A stretch of DNA of 64,000 nt, taken from Candidatus Omnitrophota bacterium. GTDB lineage: Bacteria > Omnitrophota > Gorgyraeia > Duberdicusellales > 4484-171. The DNA lies in the NCBI GenBank assembly GCA_003154195.1, contig PMCS01000005.1, positions 9,449 to 73,448 of the forward strand, in the 5' to 3' direction. A model generated the notes under the pieces. That model did not search any database. It worked only from the letters and a program-made list of their open reading frames with translations, and was not told the origin of the DNA. Shown here piece by piece: positions 43,291 through 62,807 of this stretch (position 1 is the first letter of the stretch; each line of letters begins with the position of its first letter). Both the position numbers and the translations under genes were made by a program.

Positions 43291-44016
43291 TCAGTTTCGC
43301 GGCTCAATCTTTTTAATCCGGAAAAACAGCTTAAGATAACTGAAAAGAGTATCGAGCTTTTTCATTTTGGAAAACCCGCGCTTTCGGTTAATAAAGGTAA
43401 TCGGCACCTCGCGCATGGCATACCCCAGCCAATGGGCGCGCGCCAGAAATTCGACATAAAAATCAAATTTTTTCGCGGCCAGTAAAGGCGTAATTTTCTC
43501 CACAACGCCGCGCCTGATCAATCGGTACCCGGAAGTTTTATCGCGGACCCGCAACGCCGCAAAAACAGTTAAGAAGTCGTTAACCCGCTTGCTCAAGAAA
43601 AGTTTCCACGCCGGCATGCCGTAAATCCTGGCGCCCTTTACATAGCGGGAGCCGATTACGATATCCGCCCCGGTGCCTTTCAATGCATCGAAAAAATATC
43701 CCAACTCCTCCGGCTGGTGGTTGAGGTCGGCGTCCATCATGAGAACGCAATCGCAATCTTTTGATATATTTTCCAAACCGGTCCGGCAAGCGCGGCCGGC
43801 GCCGGCCGGAACTTCTGAATAAATAATACGCAAATCCTTGATATCCTCCCGGCGGGCGGTTTCTTCGAGAACCTCAACCCCCCTATGATTTCCATCAACA
43901 ACAAACAAAAATTTCGCCGTAACGCCGAGTTTACGAAGCGCAGCGTTCAAGCGGCTAAACAATTCTCCCAAATTTTCTTCTTCATTATAAGCGGTGATAA
44001 CAGCTTCGACAATCAT
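43291..44016 (-). CDS. GT2 family polyprenyl-phosphate glycosyltransferase (DPM1/ArnC-like)
   Basis: VVDGNHRG...DADLNHQPEEL (DxD)...GADIVIGSRY. Confidence 0.75.
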   Translation of the reverse strand: MIVEAVITAYNEEENLGELFSRLNAALRKLGVTAKFLFVVDGNHRGVEVLEETARREDIKDLRIIYSEVPAGAGRACRTGLENISKDCDCVLMMDADLNHQPEELGYFFDALKGTGADIVIGSRYVKGARIYGMPAWKLFLSKRVNDFLTVFAALRVRDKTSGYRLIRRGVVEKITPLLAAKKFDFYVEFLARAHWLGYAMREVPITFINRKRGFSKMKKLDTLFSYLKLFFRIKKIEPRN

Positions 44017-44060
44017 CGTATATTTTTCCGTAGTGAATCACCGCCACCTTCGTTGGTGAT

Positions 44061-45707
44061 TTAGTCATCCCTGAACGCTTGATAAAGCACTCTTAAGTCA
44101 AAAGCGCGATACTCTTTCTCCAATACCGGAGACCTATCTTTAATAAAGGCCTGATAATCATACGCCCCACCTTTTTGCAAAATCAGCACTATCGGTTCAT
44201 CTTGCAGATTATAATATTTACTCCGGGAGTCTCTATACAGGATTATAAAACCTACATATACGACATGGTAATGGTCGTTTATATATTTTTTGATATCCTG
44301 AGGGGTATTTTCGTTATAATATGCCTTGGGATAAAACACCGCGAAGCGTATATTAAATAGTTTTTCTTTTTCTTTGAATTCTTCCAGAGTCTTTACCCAG
44401 CCGCACTTCCGATCGGCATAGGTAGAAATACCCACGTGCTGGCACCAGGTATTCAAAAAAAAGCGTTCTTCCGGCCGGGTATGATTACGGATAAAAGATC
44501 CGGCAGCGTCCATGCCGCTAAAAATGGTGCAATAATGCTCCCATAACGAAATATAAATCGCCGGTATGGCAGAAACAAAAAATAAGATTACCAGCGCGGT
44601 TCCCAGATGGGATATTAGACGATTAACGCCCCGGCCGAGATAATATAACGCGTAGGCGCTTGAAAATGCCGGAATAAACATAAACGGCATCTGGTAATAA
44701 CTATGCTGATTTATATAATCAGAAAGCCCCATGCAATAGACAACCAGCGCGGCCAACCAGCCAAAAAGAAAACGCCGCAATAAAACATTTTGACGGTTGC
44801 GTACGGCCATATAATAACCTAAAAGGCCGGCCATGGTAAAAAAAACCGTATAACTTTCTTTAACCGTATATAAAAAAATTTTCACGCCGTAATTATGCCA
44901 ATAGGAGGCGGAAAAGATTTCCAGCAGATTTATCCGGCCTTCCGATATCCGGAAACTCAACTCCTTGCCAAACCAAAAAATCGCCGCCACGGCGATCAAG
45001 GGAGTTAAGGTTAGAAAAATATTCCGCGCCAGCCCCAGCAAATGGTATTTATCCCAAAGCCGGCGATAGGGGATTATAAACAGCAGAGGGATAAAACAGA
45101 TGAGGAAAGATAACTTACAAACAAAAACAAAAACCGCGCAAAGAATCGAAAAAAACAGATATCGGAATTCAAGAACGGTCGCAAAGCGTAAATAAAAATA
45201 GACGCAGGCAAGCATTCCCGTAAAAGCCGGGCATTCCGGCTGTAAATTACGCGCGAAAAATATACTCAGCGGAAAAATACTCAAAACAAACGCGGTTAAT
45301 AACCCTAATGGTTTTGATTGGGTTAAAAGAACGGTGATCTTAAACGCCAGGACGATACCGACAAGAAAAAATAAGACGTTAATCGTCCGCGCGGCAGCCA
45401 GAAAGTTATTTTCGCCGAATAATTTAAGGCAAAGAGCAGTCTGCCACATCGTAATGTGGCCGCCGGGAAATAAATCGATTTTTTTGGGATTAACCTCCAG
45501 GCCGTAATGAAAATCCGCGTACCGCGAAAAAAAATCGCCGCGCTTGAGCATGTTTTTAGCAACGCTGATCATCTCATGCTCTTTGACATTATGATAACCG
45601 ATGGCGGGAAAAGTGATATTATAAAGCCGGATAAAAAACGCGAAAACGATTATCGCGGCTAAAATAAATGTATAATATTTGTCAGTGCTGGAATTGATAC
45701 GGCGCAT
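44061..45707 (-). CDS. GT-C family integral-membrane glycosyltransferase (ArnT/PMT-like)
   Basis: ~13 TM helices. The N-terminal loop EHEMISVAKNMLKRGDFF...GHITMWQTAL resembles the ArnT/PMT_2 first periplasmic loop. Paired with the ArnC-like GT2. Confidence 0.6.
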   Translation of the reverse strand: MRRINSSTDKYYTFILAAIIVFAFFIRLYNITFPAIGYHNVKEHEMISVAKNMLKRGDFFSRYADFHYGLEVNPKKIDLFPGGHITMWQTALCLKLFGENNFLAAARTINVLFFLVGIVLAFKITVLLTQSKPLGLLTAFVLSIFPLSIFFARNLQPECPAFTGMLACVYFYLRFATVLEFRYLFFSILCAVFVFVCKLSFLICFIPLLFIIPYRRLWDKYHLLGLARNIFLTLTPLIAVAAIFWFGKELSFRISEGRINLLEIFSASYWHNYGVKIFLYTVKESYTVFFTMAGLLGYYMAVRNRQNVLLRRFLFGWLAALVVYCMGLSDYINQHSYYQMPFMFIPAFSSAYALYYLGRGVNRLISHLGTALVILFFVSAIPAIYISLWEHYCTIFSGMDAAGSFIRNHTRPEERFFLNTWCQHVGISTYADRKCGWVKTLEEFKEKEKLFNIRFAVFYPKAYYNENTPQDIKKYINDHYHVVYVGFIILYRDSRSKYYNLQDEPIVLILQKGGAYDYQAFIKDRSPVLEKEYRAFDLRVLYQAFRDD

Positions 45708-45733
45708 TGATCGACCCGCCCATGGATATTTAT

Positions 45734-46723
45734 CTAAAACCCGCTTACCTTAAGATACTTGCCATACCATTCGATTGTTCTTTTCAAGCCGTCGTTTAAA
45801 CTATACCGCGGTTCCCACTTTAAAACGTTTCTCGCTTTCCCGGATGACAGGTACTGATGCTTTATTTCGTATCTTGCTTTACCCAGAATTTTATAAGCGG
45901 GAACCGTACCACAAGCGCGGTAAATGGTTTTTACCAAATCGATTACGGTAAGGGGATTCTCATCGCTGAAGTTAAACGCCTCGCCGGCCAACCTTTTTAT
46001 CCGCAACTGCTGCCCTAAAAGCAAATACCCTTCCACGATATCGTCGACGTAAATATAATCGCGGGTAAATTTACCGTCGCTGCGGATATTAAAAGTCTTG
46101 CCCAGGATAGCGCACCTCACCGCGTCCGGCACCACCCGGGAAAAATTAAAATCGCCCGGGCCGTAGATATTGCCGCACCGGGTAACCGCAGCCGGCACGC
46201 CATAGGTATTATAATACGCGCCGGCGATTAAATCCGCGCAGCTCTTAGACACATCATAAGGGTGATTGCCGGCCAAAGGAGCATTTTCTTTATAAGGAAG
46301 TTTTTTATGGCTTCCGTAAGCCTTATCGCTGGAAGCGACGACAAGCGCTTTTACTCCCGGCGTGCCCCTTGCCGCTTCAAGAATATTCCATGTCCCTTCG
46401 ATATTGGCGGAAAAACATTCCCGGGGGCTTTTAAGACAATCATTGACCAGCGCTTTAGCCGCGAGATGAAAAATAATCTCAATATTATCATTCGTCATAA
46501 CCTTTTTCATAAACGCGAAGTCGGCAACGCTCCCTTGATAAACCTTGATCATCCGTAAATCGCCGGCGGAAAGGATTGTTTCTTTGCGATGCGTTAAAAT
46601 ATCCACGCCGGCCACGCGCGCGCCGCCGGCGATAAGCGCTTTCGTCAGGTGAGAGCCCAAAAAACCTTCATAACCGGTTATTAAAACATTTTTATTGCGC
46701 CAAAATCTTTTATCCATTATCAT
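45734..46723 (-). CDS. rfbG: CDP-glucose 4,6-dehydratase-like extended SDR (RfbG-type)
   Basis: NVLITGYEGFLGSHL (RfbG-type Rossmann), YDVSK (YxxxK), C-terminal LKWEPRYSLNDGLKRTIEWY. Confidence 0.6.
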   Translation of the reverse strand: MIMDKRFWRNKNVLITGYEGFLGSHLTKALIAGGARVAGVDILTHRKETILSAGDLRMIKVYQGSVADFAFMKKVMTNDNIEIIFHLAAKALVNDCLKSPRECFSANIEGTWNILEAARGTPGVKALVVASSDKAYGSHKKLPYKENAPLAGNHPYDVSKSCADLIAGAYYNTYGVPAAVTRCGNIYGPGDFNFSRVVPDAVRCAILGKTFNIRSDGKFTRDYIYVDDIVEGYLLLGQQLRIKRLAGEAFNFSDENPLTVIDLVKTIYRACGTVPAYKILGKARYEIKHQYLSSGKARNVLKWEPRYSLNDGLKRTIEWYGKYLKVSGF

Positions 46724-46762: not shown

Positions 46763-48598
46763 CTACCGCCGCTCAAGAACAACATAATCATCAATAAGAT
46801 GAACAGCTTTGTAATTACTAAAAATATACCGGTCGATGCCGGAATACAATTTAAGCGTATCTCGTATCTTAGCATCGTAGAAAAAAGGGTAAAAAAACAA
46901 CTCCGCGATGGATTTTCCCGTCATCCCCCATGCCATATTGGCAACGCCGTCATCCCATACGCCACGGCTTATTAAAATAACATAATGAGACGCATCTTTC
47001 AACTGCTCGATTTTTCTATTTATCTCTGCTTTCGTGCCGACGCCGGTAAGGCCGCAAAAATATTCGGGTACATATTTATCGCGAAGATATAAATAATCGG
47101 ATAGCTCCTCCGAAACAGTAAAAGGCGTTGCGACTTTTTTATATTTCTTAAGCACCTTGTCAAAATCCCGATAGGTGTCCGCCAGTTCTTTCATCGAATA
47201 CGCCTTTGATCTTAAATAATAGAAAATCGCCGGACGGCTATAATTAAGGCCGCTTTCCAGCATGGCGACGCAAAAAATTATGCCGAATGATAACGCGTAA
47301 ATCTGGAACGCTTTTCGCGATATATGGTAAACCATGATAAGCGCCGTCAAAAATAGTCCGGAGCCGTAGAAAAAAATATGGCCGGGGTCGCACCGGCCTA
47401 ACGCGGCCGGCATCAAGGAAAAACTCAAAAAAACCAGGGCGCAAGAAAAAATGTTTTTCCGGTATTTTATGAAATTAGACAGCTGTACCGCCACAACATA
47501 AAAAAGACTCGCCAGATATATTAAAATCGACGGCGAAGGAATGATAGGGAAAGCGCCTATGCCAGCTGCATGCGCTATCATTCGAGAAAAATAATTTGTT
47601 TTCGCAAAGGCAAAAAACAACAATGCGCCGGATACAATCAAAACGATAAGCGGATAAAGAAATTTTCGATCGCGAAAAAACGACAAGAGAACAAAATAAA
47701 AAACGAGGGAAACAAAGAATGCCGCGCCGATCTCCGGCGAGATTAGAATATTCAATAATCCTAAGACAAAGGCGTAAACCGCGATTACAGTTGTTTTCAA
47801 TTTATTTTTGTCGCCGGCGGCAATAAAACGGTCCAGAAAAACCAAGCTTGCGTAAGAAAATAAAAATCTAACAAACGTATACTGTATCCCCAAAGATAAG
47901 GGAAGCGCCGCTAAGGAAAATAAATAAAAGATAAGAGTTTTCTCTTTTTTTCCGGCGGCAAGGGCATTAACTAAGAAAAACAAGAGGTATAAACCAAAAA
48001 AACAAAACAGCAAATAAGCCAGATAACATGTTGTTTTTAAATCAACGCCGAATATTTTTAAAGCATTGAATAAATACGCGGGCGCATATAAAAAAATTGC
48101 GCCGTGCTCATATGTAAAATCGCGATAGGGAATGTAGTTGGCCAGCGTTAATCTAACGCGATCGAAAAGATAAGCCATTTCTCCATAACCTATCCTCCCG
48201 CCGGTTAAATAGTAGAGCAGCGCTACGCAGAAAAAATATATCAAGCCTATATATACAAAATGCCGAAAAGAAATATTCTCGCCGTGTTCGCCCGGCGTTA
48301 AAAGAACGGGCCGGTCTTTTATCTCAAACAAAAGCCAAACCACCAGCGTTATCAACAAAATAAATATTGCCGTGGAAAAAACTGCCGCCTGATTGTTGAA
48401 CCCATAGTCAAGAGCGTCGGAAACAACAATAGCAGACGGCGGGATATAACGAGGCAAGTTAAAAATAGCGACACATGCTAAAGCAATATATACCTCTAAA
48501 AACGCTATTTTTTTATACATAAGATACTGATGGCGCTCAAACTGTTTCGCAAAAACCGCGAAACAGTTTGCCGGCAAAAAAAGCATCAAAAACATCAA
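46763..48598 (-). CDS. Large polytopic membrane protein (~15 TM) with ~190-aa C-terminal soluble domain; possible glycan polymerase/GT-C-like
   Basis: Hydrophobicity pattern only. Located inside the glycan locus. Confidence 0.35.
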   Translation of the reverse strand: MMFLMLFLPANCFAVFAKQFERHQYLMYKKIAFLEVYIALACVAIFNLPRYIPPSAIVVSDALDYGFNNQAAVFSTAIFILLITLVVWLLFEIKDRPVLLTPGEHGENISFRHFVYIGLIYFFCVALLYYLTGGRIGYGEMAYLFDRVRLTLANYIPYRDFTYEHGAIFLYAPAYLFNALKIFGVDLKTTCYLAYLLFCFFGLYLLFFLVNALAAGKKEKTLIFYLFSLAALPLSLGIQYTFVRFLFSYASLVFLDRFIAAGDKNKLKTTVIAVYAFVLGLLNILISPEIGAAFFVSLVFYFVLLSFFRDRKFLYPLIVLIVSGALLFFAFAKTNYFSRMIAHAAGIGAFPIIPSPSILIYLASLFYVVAVQLSNFIKYRKNIFSCALVFLSFSLMPAALGRCDPGHIFFYGSGLFLTALIMVYHISRKAFQIYALSFGIIFCVAMLESGLNYSRPAIFYYLRSKAYSMKELADTYRDFDKVLKKYKKVATPFTVSEELSDYLYLRDKYVPEYFCGLTGVGTKAEINRKIEQLKDASHYVILISRGVWDDGVANMAWGMTGKSIAELFFYPFFYDAKIRDTLKLYSGIDRYIFSNYKAVHLIDDYVVLERR

Positions 48599-49874
48599 CG
48601 ATATACTTCCTTTTCTCTCCCGTTATCCCGGGATAAACCCCGATCCAGAATAAATTATTCATTACTAAATCGGTATTATTTAATTTACCGGCGGCGCGGT
48701 ATTTTATATTTTGGTATGCCGGCTGCCGGAGCAAATTACCGCCAAAAAGCATGCGCGTGGCGATTTTATTGCTTTCTAAATAGCCGACGATATCGGCGCG
48801 GGAAAACGGCGCGGCCTCGCGCACCAGAATAGGAAAACCAAACCAGCTCGGCCCAGCTTCCTTAAGCCGGCGCGGTAAAATAAAATATTTTTCATACTTT
48901 TTTAAATGGATATATAAATAGGCGTAATTATTTTTTCGCGCGGCGATGAATTTTGGTAGTTTCTCAAGCTGGGCGCAGCCGATTGCCGCCTGCATATCGG
49001 TAACTTTTAAGTTATAGCCTATATGGGAATAAACATATTTATGGTCGTAGCCGTAAGGAAGACTGCCTAATTTTTGGGCGAAGCGCTTGCCGCAAGTATT
49101 GTCACAACCGGTTTCACACCAGCAATCCCTGCCCCAATCGCGAAAAGAAAGAATAATTTTACGCAATAGCGGATTGCTGGTTAATACCGCGCCGCCCTCT
49201 CCCATAGTTAAATGATGTGCCGGGAAAAAACTGCAGGTAGAAATATCCCCAAAAGCCCCCGTATATCTTCCCCGGTATTTTGAGCCGAGACTGTCGGAAT
49301 TATCCTCGATCAACCATATTTTATATTTCTTTGCGATTTTCTTAACCGCGGTTAAATCGAAAGGATTGCCTAATGTATGCGCTAAAAAAATAGCTCTTGT
49401 TTTCTTGCTTATTGCCGCCTCTATCTTTGCCGCATCGGTATTATACGTTCCCAGCTCAATATCAACAAAAACAGGAATCAGGTTATTTTGCAATATCGGA
49501 TTTAAAGTCGTGGGAAAACCGCAAGCGGTAGTAATGACCTCGTCCCCAGGTTTAAGCTGCCTGCTTTTTAACAACGGTGATGTTAAAGCCGAAACCGCCA
49601 ATAAATTAGCGGAGGAACCGGAATTACACAGCAAGCAATATTCGACACCCAGGAAATTGCTGAGCTTTTTTTCAAATTCCCGCGCGTATCTGCCGGCAGT
49701 AAGCCAGAAGTCCAGAGACGAATCTACCAGGGCGGTTAACTCTTTTTTGTCGTAAACCCTGCCGGCGTAGTTGATGTAAGTTTTGCCGGGAATAAATTTT
49801 TCTTCGGGCTTGGCTGAATAATATTTTTTTACCAATTTTAGTATCTTCTCGCGAAAAATATTTTCTTGGTTCAT
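48537..49874 (-). CDS. rfbH: CDP-6-deoxy-D-xylo-4-hexulose-3-dehydrase-like (RfbH/DdhC, DegT family PMP enzyme)
   Basis: LDFWLTAGRYAREFEKKLSNFLGV, PGDEVITTACGFPTTLNPILQNNLIPVFVDIE and LAHTLGNPFDL closely match the RfbH family. The likely start is the internal MNQEN. Confidence 0.7.
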   Translation of the reverse strand: MNQENIFREKILKLVKKYYSAKPEEKFIPGKTYINYAGRVYDKKELTALVDSSLDFWLTAGRYAREFEKKLSNFLGVEYCLLCNSGSSANLLAVSALTSPLLKSRQLKPGDEVITTACGFPTTLNPILQNNLIPVFVDIELGTYNTDAAKIEAAISKKTRAIFLAHTLGNPFDLTAVKKIAKKYKIWLIEDNSDSLGSKYRGRYTGAFGDISTCSFFPAHHLTMGEGGAVLTSNPLLRKIILSFRDWGRDCWCETGCDNTCGKRFAQKLGSLPYGYDHKYVYSHIGYNLKVTDMQAAIGCAQLEKLPKFIAARKNNYAYLYIHLKKYEKYFILPRRLKEAGPSWFGFPILVREAAPFSRADIVGYLESNKIATRMLFGGNLLRQPAYQNIKYRAAGKLNNTDLVMNNLFWIGVYPGITGEKRKYIVDVFDAFFAGKLFRGFCETV

Positions 49875-49893: not shown

Positions 49894-50961
49894 TTACTCA
49901 AAAACAAAATCTGCCAAGGCTGCGCTAACTTCATCAAACCCTGCATCATTAACCTTGACAAGCTTATAGCCGTCTCGCAGCATAACGACCGATAGTTTAT
50001 CCCCCACTCGTTTTTTATCGTTCCTCATGGCACCGATAATCGCGTCCGCTTGAAGATATCCTGCCTTAACCTTAACAACTAACGCGGGACGCAACAACTC
50101 ATCCATTACAAACGTGTGAAATTTTTGAGACATAATTCCTCTTCGATAGGAGATAATGTTCGCCAGCATCATGCCGGCGACGACTGCTTGCCCATGCGGA
50201 ATTTCAAATCTTGAAACACTTTCAATCGCATGGCCAAAACAATGTCCATAATTTAAAAGGTTCCGTAAACCTGAATCGAATTCATCTCTTTCGATATAAC
50301 TTTTCTTGATTGCTAACGTTTTCTTAATCATAACCGCCATAACTTTATTGTCGCGTTTTATCATCTCAGGCAAACATTCTATCAAACCCCTAGTCGCCTT
50401 CTCGCCGCCCATAATATCAAGTTTAACCACTTCGCCTAACCCGCTGAAATAATCAATCTTTTTTTGCGTTGTCAAAAAGGAGATATCGATAAAAACTTCA
50501 ATCGGCGGATAAAATGTACCGACAATATTCTTAAAGCGCTTATAATTAAGGGAAGTTTTACCGCCGATGCAACTATCACACTGAGCCAAAAGAGTTGTCG
50601 GCAAAAATATCCATTCAATACCCCGGTATAGCGTCGAAGCGGCGAATCCGCTTATATCCTGCGCAATCCCACCGCCTATCGTAACCATGGTCATATTCCG
50701 CTTTGCCGACCGAGCGATCAAGGCATCATAAATACGCAAAACACTATCCAGGATTTTCTTATCCTCGCCAATCGACAGGACCATAACATCGCACCGCGGT
50801 AAACATTTTAAAACTGAATCCTTGTATAGCTTCCAAACAGCATTATCAACAATAAAAAAACTAGGCTGACGATTCCTAATAGTTTTTGATAAATACCCGG
50901 CCGCGCTGCCAAAATCAACTCTGTAATCACGAATATTCGAATGAATCGTAATCACAGACAT
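49894..50961 (-). CDS. 3-dehydroquinate synthase-like sugar-phosphate cyclase superfamily protein
   Basis: TIGGGIAQDISGFAAS (GGG nucleotide loop) and metal-binding His pair NYGHCFGHAIE...HGQAVVAGM. Confidence 0.55.
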   Translation of the reverse strand: MSVITIHSNIRDYRVDFGSAAGYLSKTIRNRQPSFFIVDNAVWKLYKDSVLKCLPRCDVMVLSIGEDKKILDSVLRIYDALIARSAKRNMTMVTIGGGIAQDISGFAASTLYRGIEWIFLPTTLLAQCDSCIGGKTSLNYKRFKNIVGTFYPPIEVFIDISFLTTQKKIDYFSGLGEVVKLDIMGGEKATRGLIECLPEMIKRDNKVMAVMIKKTLAIKKSYIERDEFDSGLRNLLNYGHCFGHAIESVSRFEIPHGQAVVAGMMLANIISYRRGIMSQKFHTFVMDELLRPALVVKVKAGYLQADAIIGAMRNDKKRVGDKLSVVMLRDGYKLVKVNDAGFDEVSAALADFVFE

Positions 50962-55159: not shown

Positions 55160-56263
55160 TCATTTCAAAAGCGCACAAAATGTACGACAGACAAAATCAA
55201 CATCTTTTTCAGTGATATCCGCAGCTGAAGCCAGCGAAATACCTCTTTTCTCAACCTTTTCCGCCACGGGATTAGGGAAGCGCCGCGTATACATGGGGAA
55301 TGAACTCATCCGGGGAAAAGCAGGACGGCAATGTATATTATGCTCCCTGAAATGTTTTAATATTTCGTCACGTTGCACTGAAATACCATCCTCCAAAAGA
55401 ATCGAAGGATAGCAGTAATTACTTTTACAATCCTTTTTTTCTTTGATGATCTTTATCCCCGGCACATCCTTAAGCCGCGCGTAATACCACGAGAATATCT
55501 CTCGTTTCTTAGCGACTAATTCCTCGATACGCTCCACCTGCGCAAGAGCAAGCGCCGCAGTCAGGTTAGCAATCGTATATTGATACCCCAGCATATCCGA
55601 CCAAAAAACAGCTTTTGAATCTGTGCGGCCCATATTACTAAGCAGGACTGCTTTCTGATATAACTCTTTATTATTGGTGACGAAAATTCCGCCCTCGCCG
55701 CTGACCGCTATTTTTGCGCCCTGAAAGCTAAAACACCCGATATCGCCGAATGTCCCCGTCTTTTGCCCCTTAAACTCGGAACCCAAAGAAGGGGCCGCGT
55801 CCTCAATGACACGCAGATTATATTTTTTTGCTATATTCATAATTTCATCCATCTGTGCCGGATGGCCAAAACAATGCACCAGCATAATAGCCTTCGTCTT
55901 ATCTGTTATGGCTTTTTCTATCGCGCGCGGTTCTATGCACCATGAATCCGGATCGATATCGACAAACACCGGAACTGCGCCGGTATAAAGAATTGCATGA
56001 GCGGTAGCAACCCAGCTAAAATCAGTGCAGATAACCTCATCGCCCGGCTTTAACCCTATAGAGGCTGTAGCCAAATGAAGCGCCACCGTACAGCAATGTG
56101 TCGCGAGAGTGTACTGAACGCCCAAATACTCAGCAACCGCGCGCTCCAGTTTCTTTATATGCATATCAAATGTTTGATACCACCCGTTTTTAACTGCCTC
56201 GAGCACATAGTCAATTTCTTTTTGCGTTATCCATGGGCCCGCAAAACTTATTTTCTTGTTCAT
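55160..56263 (-). CDS. DegT/DnrJ/EryC1/StrS family sugar aminotransferase
   Basis: GDEVICTDFSWVATA, FHPAQM-type region, FSFQGAKIAVSGEGG (the PLP Lys in this motif). The start is the internal MNKKISF, preceded by an AAGGGGGA SD. Confidence 0.8.
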   Translation of the reverse strand: MNKKISFAGPWITQKEIDYVLEAVKNGWYQTFDMHIKKLERAVAEYLGVQYTLATHCCTVALHLATASIGLKPGDEVICTDFSWVATAHAILYTGAVPVFVDIDPDSWCIEPRAIEKAITDKTKAIMLVHCFGHPAQMDEIMNIAKKYNLRVIEDAAPSLGSEFKGQKTGTFGDIGCFSFQGAKIAVSGEGGIFVTNNKELYQKAVLLSNMGRTDSKAVFWSDMLGYQYTIANLTAALALAQVERIEELVAKKREIFSWYYARLKDVPGIKIIKEKKDCKSNYCYPSILLEDGISVQRDEILKHFREHNIHCRPAFPRMSSFPMYTRRFPNPVAEKVEKRGISLASAADITEKDVDFVCRTFCALLK

Positions 56264-56279: not shown

Positions 56280-57434
56280 TTATAGCCTAAGCTTCTGCAG
56301 TCTCCGACATGCCTCATCAAGCTGCGCATCTTTTTTGGCAAAAACAAATCGCACCAGATCATCGCCGGCACAATCATGATAAAATGCAGAACCGGGTACC
56401 GACGCAACCCCTACGGTGTTAAGTATATACCTTGCCTTCTCTTTACTGGTTTTCCCCGGAACAGCGCCGACATCGGCAAGCACATAATACGCTCCCCGAG
56501 GAATAAACGGCGTAAGGTTTATTTTATGCAACACATCACATATTTTATTTCGTTTACGCGCATACTCAACGCATAAATTCGCATAAAAATCATCCGATAG
56601 CCCCTCTATACCCCTGGCAACGCCCATTTGAAGAGGGGCAGGGCTGCAGACATACACCAAATCATTTATATACCCTATAGACTGAGCCCATTTCTCATGG
56701 CATACACAATACCCGATACGCCACCCCGTGATACTAAACACTTTTGAATAACCCGAGATGGTTATCACTCTATCCTGGATACCGGACAGCGAACCCGGAC
56801 TTATATGAGAAAAACCATCATACACAAAATACTCATATATTTCATCAGTAAAAATAAACATGTCGCGTGCAACGGCAAACTGCACAAGCGCCTGCAATTC
56901 ATTTTGCGAAAATATCTTGCCGGAAGGATTTCCTGGAGTATTGATCATGATCCCTTTTGTCCTTGGCGTAACCAGCTTTTCCAACGAACTCATATCGAAT
57001 GTCCAATCCGGCGGCATAGTGCGGACATACACCGGCTTTGCGCCGACCGCCAAAAGCGTGTTGACGTGATATCCATAGTAAGGCTCAAAAATAATCACTT
57101 CATCGCCGGGGTTAAGAAGCGCAAGACAGGCAGAATAAAAAGCACCGGTCGCACCGCATGAAACAACGATATTCTTTTCCGGATCGGCATTAATCTTATT
57201 ATATTTTTTCAATTTTACCGCGATAGCTTTTCGTAATTCAAAAATACCATCATAGCGCGTATATTGATTAATCCCCGCGTCGATAGCGTCTTTAGCACCC
57301 TCCCGCACAAGCCGCGGCAACGCTAAATCGCAAATGCCCTGTGATAAATTGATACCACCCACTTTATCACATTCAATGGACATCGCCCGTATCTCTGATT
57401 GAACAATCTCGTCTATACGTGCATTAACCTGCAT
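56280..57434 (-). CDS. Class I/II PLP-dependent aminotransferase
   Basis: INLSQGICDL..., NPGNPSGK, SGYSKVFSITGWRIGY (Lys motif), and TRYDG. Confidence 0.75.
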   Translation of the reverse strand: MQVNARIDEIVQSEIRAMSIECDKVGGINLSQGICDLALPRLVREGAKDAIDAGINQYTRYDGIFELRKAIAVKLKKYNKINADPEKNIVVSCGATGAFYSACLALLNPGDEVIIFEPYYGYHVNTLLAVGAKPVYVRTMPPDWTFDMSSLEKLVTPRTKGIMINTPGNPSGKIFSQNELQALVQFAVARDMFIFTDEIYEYFVYDGFSHISPGSLSGIQDRVITISGYSKVFSITGWRIGYCVCHEKWAQSIGYINDLVYVCSPAPLQMGVARGIEGLSDDFYANLCVEYARKRNKICDVLHKINLTPFIPRGAYYVLADVGAVPGKTSKEKARYILNTVGVASVPGSAFYHDCAGDDLVRFVFAKKDAQLDEACRRLQKLRL

Positions 57435-57462: not shown

Positions 57463-58167
57463 TTACCGGCTGCTTCGTTTCATATGCATATCATACCGCT
57501 TGATTTTTTTAGTATATCCCTTCGGCGCGTCTACCCATTCCAAACCATCTTTGCCCGCTATTTGAATTAAAGGAATACGCTTATACTCAACAAAACCCAA
57601 CCGCCCATAAAGACGGCATGCCCGTTTATTATCAGAAGCAACACGAAGAGTATAAGCAACCAGGCCCAACTGTTTTTTACCCCAATCAATCATATGCAGA
57701 ATAGCGTTACCCATAATACCGGGGTATCCCGGTTTACCACGTAATATATTGTCGATTTGGCACATTTTTTGACGAAAATCAAACCTGAAAAGCCCTACGT
57801 GGCCGATATACCGATTACGAACTTTGATTAGAAACAAAAGCCGGTCAGGCGCTCCGATGACTTTTTCTTTAAACCATTTGGTAGTCCTTAGTGTAGTAAT
57901 CTTAAACTTAGCAGGAAACCACTCTTCGTTCTCTTTACGCCATCGCCCTAGCTCATGCATTAAATTTTTCCGATGCCTGCACTCCGCAGTAAGAAGAATA
58001 AGTTTATACCGCAGGCCATCAAAAACACATGGTACAACAATCTTTCCAAACGGCTCATGCTTGAGCGTTCGCAATGCACGCAATACTTTGGTCTCATACA
58101 AATGAGTTTTATATTTAGTGTTTGGCATATGATTACCTCCATGATCAAACACGAGCTTGACGATCAT
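57463..58167 (-). CDS. GNAT-type acetyltransferase, probable sugar N-acetyltransferase
   Basis: C-terminal GNAT core IGHVGLFR...GYPGIMGNAIL...RACRLYGRLGFVEY. Sits inside the sugar locus. Confidence 0.5.
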   Translation of the reverse strand: MIVKLVFDHGGNHMPNTKYKTHLYETKVLRALRTLKHEPFGKIVVPCVFDGLRYKLILLTAECRHRKNLMHELGRWRKENEEWFPAKFKITTLRTTKWFKEKVIGAPDRLLFLIKVRNRYIGHVGLFRFDFRQKMCQIDNILRGKPGYPGIMGNAILHMIDWGKKQLGLVAYTLRVASDNKRACRLYGRLGFVEYKRIPLIQIAGKDGLEWVDAPKGYTKKIKRYDMHMKRSSR

Positions 58168-58219: not shown

Positions 58220-58456
58220 TTAGATATGCTCCCGATAACACTGTATCGTTTTATCTAAGCCTTGCCGCAAGGTATACTTTGGTTTCCAACCCAGTATGGT
58301 CCGGGTTTTAGCGGTAATCCGCGATTTGCTAATAGCCTTATCAATACCGGCAGCATCAGCCTCTCGGTCAATCAAAGCTTTTGTCGACCAAGACCCTAAA
58401 AACCCGTCATAGCCGGTTATTAAAATACGTTTATTAGTCCAAAAATGTTTATCCAT
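58220..58456 (-). pseudogene. Internally deleted remnant of a CDP-glucose 4,6-dehydratase (rfbG) gene
   Basis: The 78-aa product joins an RfbG N-terminus (MDKHFWTNKRILITGYDGFLGSW) directly to an RfbG C-terminus (ILGWKPKYTLRQGLDKTIQCYRE). Compare the intact paralog at 45734-46723. Confidence 0.6.
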
Positions 58457-58465: not shown

Positions 58466-59251
58466 TTATTTCCACACCTTCCATGGCGGATTGCCGCTCT
58501 GCCATAATTTCTCAAGCTCATTTTTGTCTCTTAACGTATCCATGGGTTTCCAAAAACCATGATGGCGGTACGCAGTTAACTGGCCGTCTGCCGCTATATG
58601 TTCGATCGGCCCTTTTTCCCATAGGATGTTATCATCGCCTAAATATCGGAATATTTCCGGCTCCAGCACAAAAAAACCGCCGTTTATCCAGCTGCCGTCG
58701 CTTTTCGGTTTTTCCTGAAAAGAAGAAACAGCGTCATCCTTGCGTAACGCCAATGTTCCAAACCTTCCGGGAAGCTGGACTGCGGTTACGGTCGCATATT
58801 TTCCGCTTTTTTTATGAAACCGCAGTAATTGCCGTACATCGATGTCACCCACGCCGTCGCCATAAGTAAGCATAAACGTTTTATCGCCGACATACTCTTT
58901 GACTTTTTTAATTCTTAAAGCGGTAAACGTATCGATACCGGTATCAATCAGGGTAACCTTCCACGGCTCAAGCTTACGGCGATGGACCTCAATCTTATTA
59001 TTCTCTATATCAACCGTAATATCCGACTGATGGGTGAAATAATTAACAAAATATTCCTTAATAATATACCCCTTGTAACCCAGGCAAAGCACAAAATCGT
59101 TAAACCCGTAAGCCGAATAGATCTTCATGATGTGCCAGAGAATCGGCTTCTCTCCTATCTCTACCATAGGCTTAGGCTTTAATTCGGTCTCTTCGCTTAA
59201 CCGCGTGCCAAAACCGCCGCATAAAATAACAATCTTGCATTTTTCTTCCAT
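58466..59251 (-). CDS. rfbF: Glucose-1-phosphate cytidylyltransferase
   Basis: IVILCGGFGTRLSEETELKPKPMVEIGEKPILWHIMKIYSAYGFNDFVLCLGYKGYIIKEYFVNYF is near-canonical RfbF. Confidence 0.85.
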   Translation of the reverse strand: MEEKCKIVILCGGFGTRLSEETELKPKPMVEIGEKPILWHIMKIYSAYGFNDFVLCLGYKGYIIKEYFVNYFTHQSDITVDIENNKIEVHRRKLEPWKVTLIDTGIDTFTALRIKKVKEYVGDKTFMLTYGDGVGDIDVRQLLRFHKKSGKYATVTAVQLPGRFGTLALRKDDAVSSFQEKPKSDGSWINGGFFVLEPEIFRYLGDDNILWEKGPIEHIAADGQLTAYRHHGFWKPMDTLRDKNELEKLWQSGNPPWKVWK

Positions 59252-59263: not shown

Positions 59264-60331
59264 TTATTCCACTATCGGCAATAATTTAAAAATATTGACA
59301 ACCTTAGCCTGCAATCCCACGAGAAATGAACAACGCATCAATGCATACAATACTAATTTACCAAAATTTCTTAAATTAGCAAACCCCGTAAAAAATATTC
59401 TCCAGGAAAATATCCGCCGCAAAAGGCCGCGCCCTTCTTTATCGCGGTTTTGCCGAATCATATTTTTTACGATTTTTACATCATCCCAAAATATATTATA
59501 TTCATATTGAAGGATAAGTTTTTTTTCTATCGGCCGCGTAAGCGCCGAAGATTTCATAAAATCCGCAAGAACTGTATAAAAATATGACCGCGTAACGCGA
59601 TTATTTTCGTATGAAGTCGAACCCTGGCCGCTGCTGATACGCCTTCTTAAAAGACGTTCCTTTAAAATAGCAACTGAAAAATGTTTTGCGGTTTGTAAAA
59701 TAAACGCGACATCGCCCGCGCCGCCCAAGCCGCCAACAGTATATTCATCATTAAATTCACCGGCAACATCAAAAACCTGCTTGCGCGCCATAAGTGCCGG
59801 CCACACAAAAAAACTCCCGCAACGTTCAAGCAACCCCTTTAACACATCGGCGAAAGTGAATACCTCTCTATTACGCAAACATCTTGGTAAACTCACTCCC
59901 AGCGAAATAACACGATCGCGTTCATCAATAAGTATATCGCGCGCGAATACTACGCCAACCTCCGGACGATTAAGCAAAAATGATAGCTCAGATTCAACGA
60001 TGCGCGGATCATAGATATCGTCGGAATGATAAAAAGCAATATATTCATAACGCGCAAACATACGCGCTTTAATGGAGTTTTTTGCCGGCCCAAGATTAGT
60101 TTGATTACGGTAATATTTTATCCGCGAATCGGAAAAAGACTCAACCACTTCCCGGGTATTATCCGTAGAAGCGTTATCGCAAACAATAATCTCGATATTC
60201 TTATAGGTCTGGTTTACAATCGATTGTAACGTTTTTCCGATATACCGCCCATGGTTGTAAGTCGGGATACAAACACTGACAAAAGGAAACGATTGAACTC
60301 CCGACGTAGCTTTAAAGCCGCTATTGGACAT
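59264..60331 (-). CDS. GT2 family glycosyltransferase
   Basis: VSVCIPTYNHGRYIGKTLQSIVNQTYKNIEIIVCDNASTD GT2 N-terminal signature. Confidence 0.75.
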   Translation of the reverse strand: MSNSGFKATSGVQSFPFVSVCIPTYNHGRYIGKTLQSIVNQTYKNIEIIVCDNASTDNTREVVESFSDSRIKYYRNQTNLGPAKNSIKARMFARYEYIAFYHSDDIYDPRIVESELSFLLNRPEVGVVFARDILIDERDRVISLGVSLPRCLRNREVFTFADVLKGLLERCGSFFVWPALMARKQVFDVAGEFNDEYTVGGLGGAGDVAFILQTAKHFSVAILKERLLRRRISSGQGSTSYENNRVTRSYFYTVLADFMKSSALTRPIEKKLILQYEYNIFWDDVKIVKNMIRQNRDKEGRGLLRRIFSWRIFFTGFANLRNFGKLVLYALMRCSFLVGLQAKVVNIFKLLPIVE

Positions 60332-61622
60332 GGCTTAGCATCACCTTTTTGCTATTAATAAAAATAATGCTTAGATAAATAACGTAAGAGATGATCGCCG
60401 AACCGACGGCGCCCGGCATCCCTGCGGCCGGTATCAGCAGAATGTTAAAAAAAATGTTCAGCAAAACCGCGATTATGTTAGCGAAGGCGGTAAGTTTTAC
60501 CCCTTCCTTGCCGCAAGACATCGCAAGCGCGCCGTACCCGCTGTTGACAAACAGCATAATCGAAGCAACGGCAAACATCAGCGCTAATTTTATATCAAAA
60601 TGATAAGCGCTGCCGTAACATTTAAAAATTACAAACTCGATCGCCGCCAGGCAGGGAATCCCCCCAAGAAACGCGTACGGCACGATATGGTTGATTTTTG
60701 TAAATAAAAATGACTTATCCTTTAAGCGCGATGCCATGGGGAAAAAAACGCTGTTAAACACCAGAAACGCCATGACTACCATTATATTTACCGAACCCAC
60801 GTAATATACGCTATAGGTGCCCACGTCGCTGATGGTAAGATATTTATTGATCAGCACCTTATCTAAATTTGTACAAACGCTGAAAGAAATAGTACCAACC
60901 GCCGCGTACGCGCTATATTGAAATAATTGTTTAAGCCGGGAACGGTCGAGCGTAAAGCCAAGGTAATTACGGGTTAAAAATATAATTATACAAATAACTG
61001 TAATATACGCAAGGCATATTGATGCAATCGCGGAAACGGCGGATACGCGGCCGGCAGCGATAAATACCAAAAAAATCATTAAAGCCATTATAGCGCATAA
61101 AGGCTGTATAACGGCATAGGCCTTCATTTTGAACAAACTACGCAGAGCATCCATCATCAGAGTATACAAGCTGAACAAAAAAGCAAAGATAATGGCCATC
61201 CCCAGGATACCCCGGCCTGCATGGATCAAACGCGTTAAATACCCGAAAAACCATAAATAAAGGCATATTGAAACAATACAAAAAAAGACGGTCAGCAAGA
61301 ACGCGCTGGAGATGATCACTCTTTGACACGCCGGGTCGTCTTTCTCCGCGGCATATTTTACCATTGCCACATTAAATCCCTGAAGCATGGGAATATATAA
61401 AAACATGGCGATCGACTGGGTAAGCATAAAACTTCCGTACGCCGACGGCCCAAGCGCTCTTCCCGCCGCTACGTTGAAGATATACAAAAAAACCGTCGCC
61501 AACAACATGCCTCCGCCGATCCGGTAGAGACTGTCAAAAAAATTTTCTTCCCCGGCGCTCATTTTGCTACCGAATGTATATTCGTAACCACGACGGATAA
61601 GGTATTTAAAAAGCTTTTGCAA
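60321..61622 (-). CDS. Wzx-type polysaccharide flippase (MOP superfamily)
   Basis: 12-14 TM helices, 433 aa, position in the glycan locus. Confidence 0.6.
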   Translation of the reverse strand: MQKLFKYLIRRGYEYTFGSKMSAGEENFFDSLYRIGGGMLLATVFLYIFNVAAGRALGPSAYGSFMLTQSIAMFLYIPMLQGFNVAMVKYAAEKDDPACQRVIISSAFLLTVFFCIVSICLYLWFFGYLTRLIHAGRGILGMAIIFAFLFSLYTLMMDALRSLFKMKAYAVIQPLCAIMALMIFLVFIAAGRVSAVSAIASICLAYITVICIIIFLTRNYLGFTLDRSRLKQLFQYSAYAAVGTISFSVCTNLDKVLINKYLTISDVGTYSVYYVGSVNIMVVMAFLVFNSVFFPMASRLKDKSFLFTKINHIVPYAFLGGIPCLAAIEFVIFKCYGSAYHFDIKLALMFAVASIMLFVNSGYGALAMSCGKEGVKLTAFANIIAVLLNIFFNILLIPAAGMPGAVGSAIISYVIYLSIIFINSKKVMLSHVQ

Positions 61623-61667
61623 GTTTTCTACCCTAGAACTCGAAAAATGCTACCTTCCTAACGGCAG

Positions 61668-62807
61668 TCAGGCATTTTCCGGGTTAAGCAAAGTAATATA
61701 TTTCAACTCTAATTGTTTGGCAACAGCAGGCCAGCTATAGCGTTCGGCAGCCAATTTTCTTCCTGAAACGCCGAGATTTTCGCGTAAAACGCTGTTTTCC
61801 GCTGCCTGCGCCATCGCCTTAGCCAACGCCCCTTCGTCTCGAAAGGGAACAAACATGATGTTATCACCGTCTTTTCCTATATGGGAAAGCATGCCGATCC
61901 TGGTAGAAATAACCGCCAATCCCGCGGCCCAGGCCTCCAGGACGGTCAACGGCAGACCTTCCAAAAGCGACGGCAGCACAAATACGTCAGCCAGACAATA
62001 CGTTTGTATTAATTTGCCGCGCTCATCGACGGCGCCAAAAAACTTCACGTATCCTTCCAGGCCGAGGCGACACGACAACTCTTCCAAATCTTTTCTCGAG
62101 GGCCCGTCCCCCACTATCCATAATTCAAATTTTAAATTGCGCTCTTTTAATACCGTAACCGCTCTAAGTAAATAATCCAGCCCCTTCAGAGGTTCGATTC
62201 TTCCCACATAGATAAATTTTACGCCCCCGTTTTTACTTAAGCAAAGATTATTTTTTGCCTCTCCGAACTGTTCATAATCAACCCCCGCGATGTTAAAATA
62301 TTCGAAATTGCGCAGTTTATATTTTTTAAATAAAGGCAGAAGATTATAATCAATGGTGATGATTTTATCAAATAACCCAAACCTTAAAAAAAACCATTCC
62401 GAATAACGTTTAACAACCGCCAAGTGGGGATGAGGAAAAGTGATGCTGTGACATGTCTGGATTACAGGGATGCGCCAAATCTTCGCCCACAAAGCAATAA
62501 AAAAACCCAGGTCGCAGGCGTGGCTGTGTATGATATCGGGCTTCAGTTTTTTTAAAATAAAAAAAGACTTGAAAAAAAATAAGGCCAGCGACAATACTCT
62601 TTTCAGGTTAACCCCATCCCAATCGAAAGATGAGGTCAACAACCCGAATTTATAAATATTTTCCTTAGATATTGCTTCTCTGCTGTTAGCGGTAAGCACA
62701 AACACATCATGGCCGGCCGCTGCCTGCTGGATCTGAAGATTATAAACACAAACCGCGTCGCCGCCGATAGCGTTGGGATATTTTTTCGTAACATGCAATA
62801 TGCGCAT
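61668..62807 (-). CDS. GT4 (GT-B fold) glycosyltransferase
   Basis: The C-terminal PSLLEGLPLTVLEAWAAGLAVISTRIG contains the EX7E-type motif. Confidence 0.75.
   Translation of the reverse strand: MRILHVTKKYPNAIGGDAVCVYNLQIQQAAAGHDVFVLTANSREAISKENIYKFGLLTSSFDWDGVNLKRVLSLALFFFKSFFILKKLKPDIIHSHACDLGFFIALWAKIWRIPVIQTCHSITFPHPHLAVVKRYSEWFFLRFGLFDKIITIDYNLLPLFKKYKLRNFEYFNIAGVDYEQFGEAKNNLCLSKNGGVKFIYVGRIEPLKGLDYLLRAVTVLKERNLKFELWIVGDGPSRKDLEELSCRLGLEGYVKFFGAVDERGKLIQTYCLADVFVLPSLLEGLPLTVLEAWAAGLAVISTRIGMLSHIGKDGDNIMFVPFRDEGALAKAMAQAAENSVLRENLGVSGRKLAAERYSWPAVAKQLELKYITLLNPENA

Follow-up and report, generated by a model that had tools for sequence, protein, structure and literature searches.

A candidate pathway for a long-chain branched 3,6-dideoxyhexose in a glycan locus of a Candidatus Omnitrophota bacterium

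Branched deoxysugars on bacterial surfaces are chemically hard to detect, yet they shape immune recognition and the interactions with phages and hosts. The closest described systems with long branches are the clusters for erwiniose (ErwE/ErwI/ErwJ/ErwF), caryophyllose (MMAR_2331/MMAR_2332) and gastriose (MyGE/MygI), for which Steitz et al. proposed that a hydroxy-2-oxo acid is added to the cytidine diphosphate (CDP) sugar CDP-4-keto-3,6-dideoxyglucose and that the product is then reduced (PMC9306805). ErwE, MMAR_2332 and MyGE use hydroxy-2-oxo acids that are derived from an aldolase, and MMAR_2331 is a protein of the aldolase/citrate-lyase family (PMC9306805). Caryophyllose itself is 3,6-dideoxy-4-C-(1,3,4,5-tetrahydroxyhexyl)hexose (PMC5706390). 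The thiamine diphosphate (ThDP) dependent enzyme JanthE has a broad donor range that includes long and 4-hydroxy 2-oxo acids, and it takes ketones as acceptors (PMC12188165). The published scheme of aldolase, ThDP enzyme and reductase rests on few cultured bacteria. Here we analyze a glycan locus from a Candidatus Omnitrophota bacterium, found at positions 43291-62807 of a stretch of 64,000 nucleotides from contig PMCS01000005.1 (the whole stretch is referred to as the window), in which the genes for CDP-4-keto-3,6-dideoxyhexose formation lie together with a ThDP enzyme and two aldolase-like proteins.

Our preferred reading, with a probability of about 0.6, is that this locus encodes the synthesis of a nucleotide-activated 3,6-dideoxyhexose with a long-chain branch at C-4, and its attachment to a surface glycan. 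The type of pathway is already published, and the window holds an unusual variant of it, with paired aldolases (AldA and AldB), without a 292-residue reductase that is found in most of its relatives, and with a trio of genes that encode a GNAT acetyltransferase, a class I aminotransferase (AT_I) and a DegT-family sugar aminotransferase (DegT_AT). The locus consists of 17 tightly spaced minus-strand genes and one gene remnant (Table 1). An earlier note on this DNA, made from the sequence alone, had read it as a CDP-3,6-dideoxyhexose core with a two-carbon branching step of the YerE/YerF kind. All of the genes that it listed are present on the minus strand, and family matches confirm the two aminotransferases, the GNAT, the tandem HpcH/HpaI-type pair and an enzyme resembling 3-dehydroquinate synthase (DHQS). 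The assembly genes that it named stand in the case of the GT4, the two GT2 glycosyltransferases and the Wzx-like flippase, but the proposed GT-C is weak.

The enzyme that would form the branch matches JanthE (8rph) over its full length with 404 bits, compared with 247 bits for PpYerE (5ahk) and 225 bits for a plant acetolactate synthase. It has the activating glutamate in an HHEQ motif and the canonical GDG...N motif in the form GDGSLQMN. On the TIGR00118 model for the acetolactate synthase large subunit it scores 338.6 bits against a cut-off of 538.35, and it also falls below the cut-off of every other acetolactate synthase model. We built a neighbor-joining tree with 200 bootstraps from the window enzyme and its relatives, JanthE, PpYerE and Escherichia coli IlvB and IlvI, with Gcl as the outgroup; with sampling limited to two acetolactate synthases and one outgroup, the window enzyme and its relatives cluster with JanthE and YerE, apart from IlvB and IlvI, with 100% bootstrap support. 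Neither an ilvN-type small subunit nor ilvC was found in the locus or among the scanned window open reading frames (ORFs) of at least 150 amino acids. We therefore treat the protein as a probable YerE-type sugar-branching carboligase and not as an acetolactate synthase. This upholds the assignment in the earlier note, which had named clustering with true acetolactate synthases as the outcome that would speak against it; the tree gives no such clustering.

To place the locus in a wider context we scanned species-representative genomes with the ThDP enzyme, obtained 302 relatives and examined the best 80 (48-62% identity), which come from Nitrospirota, Omnitrophota, Elusimicrobiota, Bacteroidota, Desulfobacterota, Spirochaetota, Melainabacteria, Firmicutes, Patescibacteria, Campylobacter concisus and others. 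ORFs were clustered in 82 loci (the best 80 and two further), here given L numbers, and partner genes were counted in those 49 whose flanks reach 5 kb or more on each side. The core genes rfbF, rfbG and rfbH are present in 37, 33 and 36 of these 49 loci respectively, and an HpcH-like aldolase is present in 39. The 292-residue extended-type short-chain dehydrogenase/reductase (SDR), which we call Epi292, occurs in 34, a PgfS/ArnC-like GT2 in 35 and GtrA in about 21. A classical SDR and a DHQS-like gene are each found in 26, a HAD-IIA phosphatase in 10, a second type of HAD in 5 and a NeuB-like synthase in 8. Most of the well-flanked loci among the best 80 of the 302 relatives thus share their enzyme logic, across many phyla, and since the conserved aldolase partner matches the published scheme of aldolase and ThDP enzyme, the cassette fits a long-branch pathway and not the two-carbon branching of yersiniose.

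The donor side of these cassettes varies in a regular way. The combinations found were aldolase with SDR and DHQS-like enzyme (24 loci), aldolase with HAD (9), aldolase alone (6), NeuB-like synthase with HAD (4), NeuB-like synthase with SDR and DHQS-like enzyme (2) and NeuB-like synthase alone (2). Among cultured carriers, Campylobacter concisus Lasto28.99 (L084) has the type with aldolase and HAD, and Clostridium sp. LP20 (L088) and Effusibacillus consociatus (L007) have the type with aldolase, SDR and DHQS-like enzyme. The SDR and the DHQS-like gene co-occur in 26 of 26 loci, and the classical SDR is absent from cassettes that have no DHQS-like gene. HAD phosphatases, present in 15 loci, never share a locus with either of them. 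Near-identical aldolases are paired with HAD in L048 and with the DHQS-like enzyme and SDR in L045 and L051. In the 8 loci with a NeuB-like synthase (for example L033, 8231-9998, L009 and L057), this enzyme takes the place of the aldolase beside the ThDP gene, often together with HAD, which suggests that ulosonic acids derived from phosphoenolpyruvate (PEP) serve as branch donors there; in L093 the aldolase position is held by an HMGL-type aldolase. The supply of the 2-oxo-acid donor therefore appears to be modular, with an aldolase, a NeuB-like or an HMGL-like synthase working alongside either HAD or the DHQS-like enzyme and SDR.

These associations change the picture of the branching step given in the earlier note. 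The SDR that it described as adjacent to the ThDP gene, and read as YerF, is separated from that gene by both aldolases and tracks the DHQS-like gene, and this strict co-occurrence led us to reject it as a YerF. Two-carbon branching likewise gives way to the published long-chain scheme (PMC9306805), which the conserved aldolase fits instead.

The DHQS-like enzyme belongs to a family whose model, TIGR04425, is named "AroB-related putative sugar phosphate phospholyase". On the aroB model TIGR01357 it reaches 280.5 bits, below the cut-off of 305. Among sugar phosphate cyclases it scores 150-167 bits with DHQS and 103-107 bits with 2-deoxy-scyllo-inosose synthase (DOIS) and 2-epi-5-epi-valiolone synthase (EEVS). 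It retains the equivalents of R130, D146, K152, N162, E194, K197, K250, R264, N268, H271, H275, H287 and K356, and across 37 of 37 cassette homologs none of these varies except at the K197 position, where 36 have lysine and 1 has arginine. We take these residues, by reference to the Aspergillus nidulans structure, to be those that contact the metal, nicotinamide adenine dinucleotide (NAD), the phosphate and the carboxylate. Because the DHQS residues are kept and the enzyme lies nearer to DHQS than to DOIS or EEVS, its sequence argues for a substrate resembling 3-deoxy-D-arabino-heptulosonate 7-phosphate (DAHP), that is a 3-deoxy-2-ulosonate with a terminal phosphate. Such a compound would be formed from a phosphorylated aldose by an aldolase using pyruvate or by a NeuB-like enzyme using PEP. 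In cassettes with HAD the phosphate would then be removed to leave a hydroxyl, and in those with the DHQS-like enzyme its elimination would produce a methyl ketone for the SDR to reduce.

AldA and AldB are 49% identical to each other. Their matches to PF03328 span only about 110 residues, and phmmer searches with each found no relative in the PDB or NCBIfam. The AlphaFold2 model of AldB (pLDDT 95.8) has its best fold matches among the class II pyruvate aldolases HpaI, HpcH and YfaU (TM-score about 0.6, 13-19% identity). Both proteins retain all of the residues that are invariant in the family, whose acidic and basic members include E82 (in a PMVE motif), E113, R140 and D142. In a tree of the cassette aldolases they form sister clades, each of which holds the proteins of the window, L013, L016 and L018, and AldB is the type that is common in related cassettes. 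On this evidence AldA and AldB are an old duplication that has been inherited as a pair in four lineages, which would suit either a hetero-oligomer or two specificities acting in succession. A recent tandem duplication and a pseudoenzyme pair were both rejected, given the sister orthogroups in four lineages and the intact invariant residues. A separate observation is that L018 (9998-14791), also from Omnitrophota, carries AldA and AldB although SDR, DHQS-like and HAD genes are all missing there, so that the aldolase pair can occur apart from the DHQS-like module. The weak HpcH matches had also raised the idea of a phosphonate pathway, with a PEP-mutase-like barrel and a ThDP decarboxylase; this was dropped since HpaI, HpcH and YfaU are the best matches of the AldB model and the ThDP enzyme resembles JanthE and YerE over its full length.

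The acceptor side is the best defined part of the locus, and here the earlier proposal of an RfbF-RfbG-RfbH core is borne out, as RfbF, a dehydratase and a true E1 enzyme are all present. RfbH aligns end to end with the E1 of Yersinia (3bcx, 566 bits), has a histidine in place of the lysine that binds pyridoxal 5'-phosphate (PLP) in the motif SFFPAHH, and conserves the CxCx3Cx3C cysteines; its motifs SFFPAHHLTMGEGG and DCWCETGCDNTC align with those of the Yersinia enzyme. Judged by these residues it is a true 3-dehydrase that uses pyridoxamine 5'-phosphate (PMP) and [2Fe-2S], not an aminotransferase, and it does not fall among the non-dehydrase DegT aminotransferases, a placement that the earlier note had considered. 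The RfbG-like protein has the CDP-glucose 4,6-dehydratases 1rkx and 1wvg as its closest PDB relatives (147 bits), and its translation carries ASSDKAYG, with SSDK, and YDVSK, with YxxxK; the Tyr-x3-Lys is catalytic, and the Asp-Lys pair of SSDK is characteristic of dehydratases specific for CDP sugars. Orthologs with 56-62% identity directly follow rfbF in L013, L018, L047 and L058, and because of this position in four related loci we accept the RfbG-like SDR as the probable dehydratase of this sub-lineage.

The dedicated reductase partner of E1 is E3 (DdhD/AscD). An FNR-like flavin reductase with no ferredoxin domain adjoins rfbH in 8 of the 49 relatives (for example L034, 3952-4671, and also L022, L033, L045, L046, L051 and L068) and is likely to be a substitute for E3. 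As it is found in only these 8 loci, such a partner is optional in the cassette and is presumably supplied in trans in the source bacterium.

Between rfbF and the GNAT gene lies the 78-residue ORF that we describe as a remnant. By tblastn it matches the protein encoded at 45734-46723 in residues 3-41 (67% identity) and 294-328 (40% identity), and the same position holds an intact dehydratase gene in L013 and L018. Metagenome annotation calls the remnant a gene in L005, with a faint GDP_Man_Dehyd match. The gene order in L013 is rfbF-rfbGl-MBL-Epi292-ThDP-AldA-AldB-SDR-DHQSl-rfbH, where rfbGl, DHQSl and MBL denote the RfbG-like, DHQS-like and metallo-beta-lactamase-fold genes, and in the window the dehydratase remnant and the trio occupy the place of rfbGl-MBL-Epi292. 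The remnant is the scar left when a rearrangement introduced the trio. The 292-residue reductase, which accompanies the ThDP enzyme in all types of cassette, is missing from the window. The metallo-beta-lactamase-fold protein (Lactamase_B_2) is encoded in 7 of the 49 cassettes (for example L008, 9252-10004, and L013, 7303-8079), where its gene separates the reductase from the rfb genes; it is likewise not found in the window.

The trio itself recurs in other genomes. AT_I has its closest PDB relatives in a Pyrococcus aromatic aminotransferase, DapC, KAT and YbdL, and it keeps the PLP lysine (Lys231) and the C-terminal Arg362, which binds the alpha-carboxylate in class I aminotransferases. Because this arginine is kept, the substrate of AT_I is probably a 2-oxo or 2-amino acid, that is, a member of the donor pool of the ThDP enzyme. 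Homologs of AT_I with 62-73% identity are found in distant organisms that include Patescibacteria and an Altiarchaeia archaeon. DegT_AT scores 318 bits on a LegC-family model with a cut-off of 420, and in the PDB it comes closest to 7b0m (256 bits), followed by the C-4 aminotransferase GDP-perosamine synthase (3bn1, 251 bits). The 82 ThDP loci contain no close homologs of the trio apart from a DegT gene in L024 (44% identity), which lies far from the cassette, and a distant AT_I-like gene in L075 (32%). A metagenome scan with AT_I gave 8 loci, and the trio recurs at 62-78% identity near RfbH and near ThDP enzymes of the YerE-like, transketolase or pyruvate dehydrogenase E1 (PDH-E1) type. It is found directly upstream of RfbH in L089-L092, L094, L095 and L101, and GNAT homologs (47-59% identity) adjoin AT_I in L089, L090, L093 and L095.

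The neighbors of the trio differ between these loci. They are a ThDP enzyme and a NeuB-cupin protein in L090; a ThDP enzyme, an HMGL aldolase, an SDR and a DHQS-like enzyme in L093; a ThDP enzyme, acetaldehyde dehydrogenase and DmpG aldolase, the layout of the erwiniose cluster, in L101; a split transketolase and an FSA aldolase in L089 (3883-7030), L092 and L094; and a DmpG aldolase with LuxC/LuxE in L091. In L102 (6811-8826) AT_I and a DegT enzyme, without the GNAT, are found with the alpha and beta subunits of PDH-E1. Transketolase and PDH-E1 represent other ThDP superfamilies that have been proposed to branch sugars. The amino group may go to the carbonyl of the side chain or, by analogy with SpnQ and SpnR, to C-4 in a portion of the E1 product. 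The earlier note had treated these as tailoring genes, and both aminotransferases and the GNAT are indeed there, but they are not scattered and form a portable three-gene unit that recurs elsewhere.

For transfer of the sugar, the small GT2 at the end of the locus has weak matches to dolichyl-phosphate hexose transferase, AglJ, PgfS and ArnC and is without predicted membrane segments. The presence of this GT2 and a PMT_2-like protein in the window, and of an ArnC/PgfS-like GT2 with GtrA beside the cassette in relatives, suggests that the sugar is transferred through a polyprenyl-phosphate sugar on the outer side of the membrane; the GT4, the 355-residue GT2 and the Wzx-like protein may build the acceptor. 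Since LptF and LptG are encoded, the source bacterium is, on its gene content, a diderm. The assembly on a lipid carrier proposed earlier is thus plausible, with the small GT2 resembling polyprenyl-phosphate hexose transferases.

The pathway that we propose begins with three steps for which the sequence evidence is strong. RfbF would form CDP-glucose, the RfbG-like SDR would dehydrate it to CDP-4-keto-6-deoxyglucose, and RfbH would remove the C-3 hydroxyl with electrons from a reductase encoded elsewhere. On the donor side AldA and AldB, possibly as a heteromer, would join pyruvate to a phosphorylated aldehyde such as erythrose 4-phosphate to give a DAHP-like 3-deoxy-2-ulosonate phosphate, from which the DHQS-like enzyme would eliminate phosphate by chemistry that uses NAD+ and a metal. 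The SDR would reduce the resulting ketone to a donor of the 4,5,6-trihydroxy-2-oxoheptanoate type with a terminal methyl group, and the ThDP enzyme would decarboxylate this donor and place a six-carbon acyl unit on C-4 of the CDP-keto sugar, which would give a caryophyllose-like skeleton. After reduction of the branch carbonyl, the side chain expected from the DAHP route would be 1,3,4,5-tetrahydroxyhexyl, as it is in caryophyllose (PMC5706390). In most relatives the 292-residue reductase would carry out that reduction, and the window has the trio instead. DegT_AT and the GNAT would add an acetamido group, either at the branch carbonyl or at C-4 of part of the E1 product, and AT_I would act on the 2-oxo-acid donor. 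Finally, transfer of the sugar to the acceptor would proceed by way of a polyprenyl-phosphate intermediate and would depend on the small GT2 and the PMT_2-like protein.

More tentatively, and with the odds somewhat against it, the TIGR04425 proteins could be DHQS paralogs that have been recruited, together with the SDR, to apply DHQS chemistry to a DAHP-like 2-oxo acid from the aldolase, either to make the 6'-deoxy terminus (a methyl) of a branch like that of caryophyllose or to close a ring onto the sugar, in which case this module and the trio might define undescribed 12-carbon branched and partly aminated sugars that are widespread in uncultivated phyla.

Several points weigh against the long-branch reading and keep its probability where we have set it. 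Which donor is used, which aldehyde enters it and whether the aldolase acts before the DHQS-like enzyme are all inferred. The RfbG-like protein scores under the equivalog cut-off of its family model, and neither tblastn with the FNR-like partner of the relatives nor Pfam scans found an FNR- or E3-like gene in the 64-kb window, which extends to its whole length the remark in the earlier note that no E3 reductase was visible. For transfer, there is no GtrA homolog in the window and no initiating phosphoglycosyltransferase in the locus, and the GT-C candidate lies under the Pfam gathering threshold. The caryophyllose and Rhodopseudomonas palustris clusters, as far as their published descriptions extend, are given with an aldolase, a ThDP enzyme and a reductase only. 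The idea that the trio simply replaces the branch reductase is weakened because DegT_AT is nearest to C-4 aminotransferases and because L091, L095 and L101 hold candidate branch reductases as well as the trio. The mutual exclusion of HAD and the DHQS-like gene or SDR (Fisher p = 3e-7, a value that overstates independence as the loci are related by descent and transfer) would be equally expected if both acted on the aldehyde precursor before the aldol step. Lastly, the enol product of phosphate elimination by DHQS cyclises readily, and a DHQS-like enzyme whose product does not cyclise would not be the default expectation.

The explanation that competes best with the long-branch reading, though we consider it rather less probable than not by a clear distance, is that the trio and the ThDP module form two parallel branches from a single E1 product. 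DegT_AT would then aminate C-4, as SpnR does after SpnQ, and the GNAT would acetylate the product to a 4-acetamido-3,4,6-trideoxyhexose, and a separate branched sugar would keep its side-chain carbonyl or have it reduced by an unlinked enzyme. This agrees with the C-4 specificity of the best solved relatives of DegT_AT (perosamine synthase among them), with the position of the trio directly upstream of RfbH in the loci listed above and with its presence alongside candidate reductases, and there is a precedent in the lipooligosaccharide cluster of Mycobacterium marinum, which specifies both caryophyllose and an N-acylated 4-amino-dideoxyhexose (PMC5706390). It gives no role, however, to AT_I, which is the most conserved member of the trio and has the arginine for binding 2-oxo acids. 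Nor does it account for the trio, or AT_I and a DegT enzyme, standing beside ThDP enzymes of three superfamilies, including the RfbH-less L102, or for the lack of a branch reductase in both the window and L093.

An unlikely alternative is that the DHQS-like enzyme completes the reaction of DHQS and that the SDR reduces the ring ketone, so that the locus yields a cyclitol similar to quinate or else a caryose-like carbocyclic sugar; for the ThDP enzyme this would mean adding a simpler donor such as pyruvate to the CDP-keto sugar, or using the ring ketone as an acceptor. The tendency of the DHQS enol intermediate to cyclise, spontaneously and by established chemistry, is what keeps this explanation alive, and it is helped by the retention of all DHQS catalytic and binding residues, by the 280 bits on the true aroB model and the greater nearness to DHQS than to DOIS or EEVS, and by the fact that JanthE takes both cyclic ketones and pyruvate (PMC12188165). 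However, a cyclitol carboxylate is no ThDP donor, and no gene for attaching a cyclitol is apparent. Ring formation would also leave unexplained why HAD excludes the DHQS-like enzyme and SDR in otherwise identical cassettes, and why the aldolase can be substituted by NeuB-like or HMGL-type synthases, which make open-chain 2-oxo acids.

A pathway of the yersiniose type, in which the ThDP enzyme adds two carbons from pyruvate, the SDR is YerF and the other genes are unrelated tailoring genes, we regard as very improbable. The ThDP enzyme does belong to the YerE/JanthE clade, and JanthE does take pyruvate (PMC12188165), but 39 of the 49 loci have an aldolase linked to the ThDP gene, the SDR goes with the DHQS-like gene and not with the ThDP gene, and the extended-SDR reductase that elsewhere accompanies the ThDP enzyme is missing from the window; moreover pyruvate is not accepted by ErwE, which likewise comes from a cluster with an aldolase gene (PMC9306805). 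That the two enzymes are a biosynthetic acetolactate synthase and a housekeeping AroB placed here by chance, as the public annotations "acetolactate synthase large subunit" and "3-dehydroquinate synthase" and the scores of 339 bits (TIGR00118) and 280 bits (TIGR01357) would have it, is scarcely credible and was rejected, because neither score reaches its curated cut-off (538 and 305 respectively), ilvN and ilvC are not found nearby, the tree splits the ThDP enzyme from IlvB and IlvI, and the linkage of both genes to rfbFGH recurs across many phyla.

Table 1. Genes of the glycan locus in their order of transcription, with positions in the window, strand and family evidence
Feature	Position	Strand	Evidence
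GT4 glycosyltransferase, first gene of the locus	61668-62807	-	Glycos_transf_1 120 bits, Glyco_transf_4 63 bits
Wzx-like polysaccharide flippase	60321-61622	-	Polysacc_synt 45 bits, Polysacc_synt_3 45 bits; about 11 hydrophobic segments
GT2 glycosyltransferase, 355 residues	59264-60331	-	Glycos_transf_2 104 bits
RfbF, glucose-1-phosphate cytidylyltransferase	58466-59251	-	TIGR02623 419 bits (cut-off 300)
Remnant of a CDP-glucose-dehydratase-like gene, 78-residue ORF	58220-58456	-	N-terminal ~39 and C-terminal ~35 residues fused
GNAT acetyltransferase (Acetyltransf_3), trio gene 1	57463-58167	-	Pfam 36 and 32 bits; weak PseH-like match
Class I aminotransferase AT_I, trio gene 2	56280-57434	-	Aminotran_1_2 205 bits
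DegT-family sugar aminotransferase DegT_AT, trio gene 3	55160-56263	-	DegT_DnrJ_EryC1 358 bits
Putative YerE/JanthE-type ThDP-dependent carboligase, 600 residues	53309-55111	-	TPP_enzyme_N, TPP_enzyme_M and TPP_enzyme_C all match
AldA, HpcH/HpaI-superfamily aldolase-like, paralog A	52462-53259	-	HpcH_HpaI 35 bits (gathering 25)
AldB, HpcH/HpaI-superfamily aldolase-like, paralog B	51658-52443	-	HpcH_HpaI 39 bits (gathering 25)
Classical SDR, 225 residues, FabG-like	50952-51629	-	adh_short_C2 159 bits
DHQS-like enzyme	49894-50961	-	TIGR04425 405.4 bits (cut-off 400)
RfbH (E1), CDP-4-keto-6-deoxyglucose 3-dehydrase (PMP, [2Fe-2S])	48537-49874	-	NF011936 714 bits (cut-off 423)
Polytopic membrane protein, 611 residues, C-terminal soluble domain	46763-48598	-	About 11-13 hydrophobic segments
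Divergent CDP-glucose 4,6-dehydratase-like extended SDR (RfbG-like)	45734-46723	-	TIGR02622 212 bits (cut-off 278)
Polytopic membrane protein, possible GT-C (PMT_2-like)	44061-45707	-	PMT_2 25.1 bits (gathering 26.1); about 9 hydrophobic segments
Small GT2 resembling polyprenyl-phosphate hexose transferases	43291-44016	-	Glycos_transf_2 64 bits

The locus is bounded by SmpB (42811-43263) and by a minus-strand gene for an AbiEii-family toxin (62976-63752), which lies immediately upstream of it. Before the AbiEii gene (L001, 750-2136) there are an unannotated ORF of 205 amino acids, possibly an antitoxin, and a B12-binding radical SAM gene. Within the locus, the 611-residue polytopic protein has no match in Pfam or NCBIfam. 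An Rfam scan of the window gave one tRNA (22266-22339) only and no riboswitch, and promoter and terminator scans gave counts not above those in shuffled sequence. Elsewhere in the window a separate minus-strand cluster (11056-16763) encodes a GNAT, two ATP-grasp proteins resembling D-Ala-D-Ala ligase, a PIG-L deacetylase and a radical SAM enzyme resembling lysine-2,3-aminomutase, and resembles a small-molecule or peptide pathway; a further minus-strand ORF of 1213 amino acids at 35784-39425 is without a Pfam match.

The analysis offers a testable function for the TIGR04425 family, which carries the NCBI description "putative sugar phosphate phospholyase", and for the highly conserved trio, and ThDP carboligases that are flexible in their donors, together with matching aldolases, could be of use for making chiral tertiary alcohols. 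A literature search of incomplete coverage found no account of the module of DHQS-like enzyme and SDR, of its exclusion by HAD, of the paired aldolases or of the trio.

Among known systems, ArnC/ArnT and GtrA/GtrB/GtrC resemble the small GT2 and the PMT_2-like polytopic protein of the window; they differ in that the window lacks GtrA, its GT2 has no predicted membrane segments and its PMT_2 match is below threshold. In the biosynthesis of forosamine, SpnQ is an E1-type 3-dehydrase that works without a dedicated E3 and is followed by SpnR, a C-4 aminotransferase, which is a precedent both for the missing E3 of the window and for amination at C-4 by DegT_AT; SpnQ and SpnR act on a 2,6-dideoxy substrate linked to thymidine diphosphate and belong to an antibiotic pathway without a class I aminotransferase, GNAT or ThDP enzyme. 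AroB shares with the DHQS-like enzyme its two-domain architecture and all of the active-site residues, whereas the DHQS-like enzyme sits in a glycan cassette and always with an SDR partner. The yersiniose A system of YerE and YerF has the same acceptor pathway (RfbF, RfbG and E1) and an enzyme of the same clade, but YerE uses pyruvate as donor and makes a two-carbon branch, and in the window there is an aldolase and DHQS-like module with no YerF-type partner identified. The solved protein nearest to the window enzyme is JanthE of Janthinobacterium sp. HH01, which shares a C-terminal extension with it, at an identity of only about 37-42% and with a CDG motif in place of the GDG of the window (PMC12247030). 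Compared with the clusters for long branches by way of their published descriptions, as far as these go, the window differs in its DHQS-like enzyme and SDR, its aldolase pair, its trio and its lack of a branch reductase. It is alike in having the genes for CDP-4-keto-3,6-dideoxyglucose beside a YerE-like ThDP enzyme and a pyruvate aldolase, and the likeness is most specific for caryophyllose, where MMAR_2331 belongs to the same family as AldA and AldB and the skeleton of the sugar matches the one predicted for the window.

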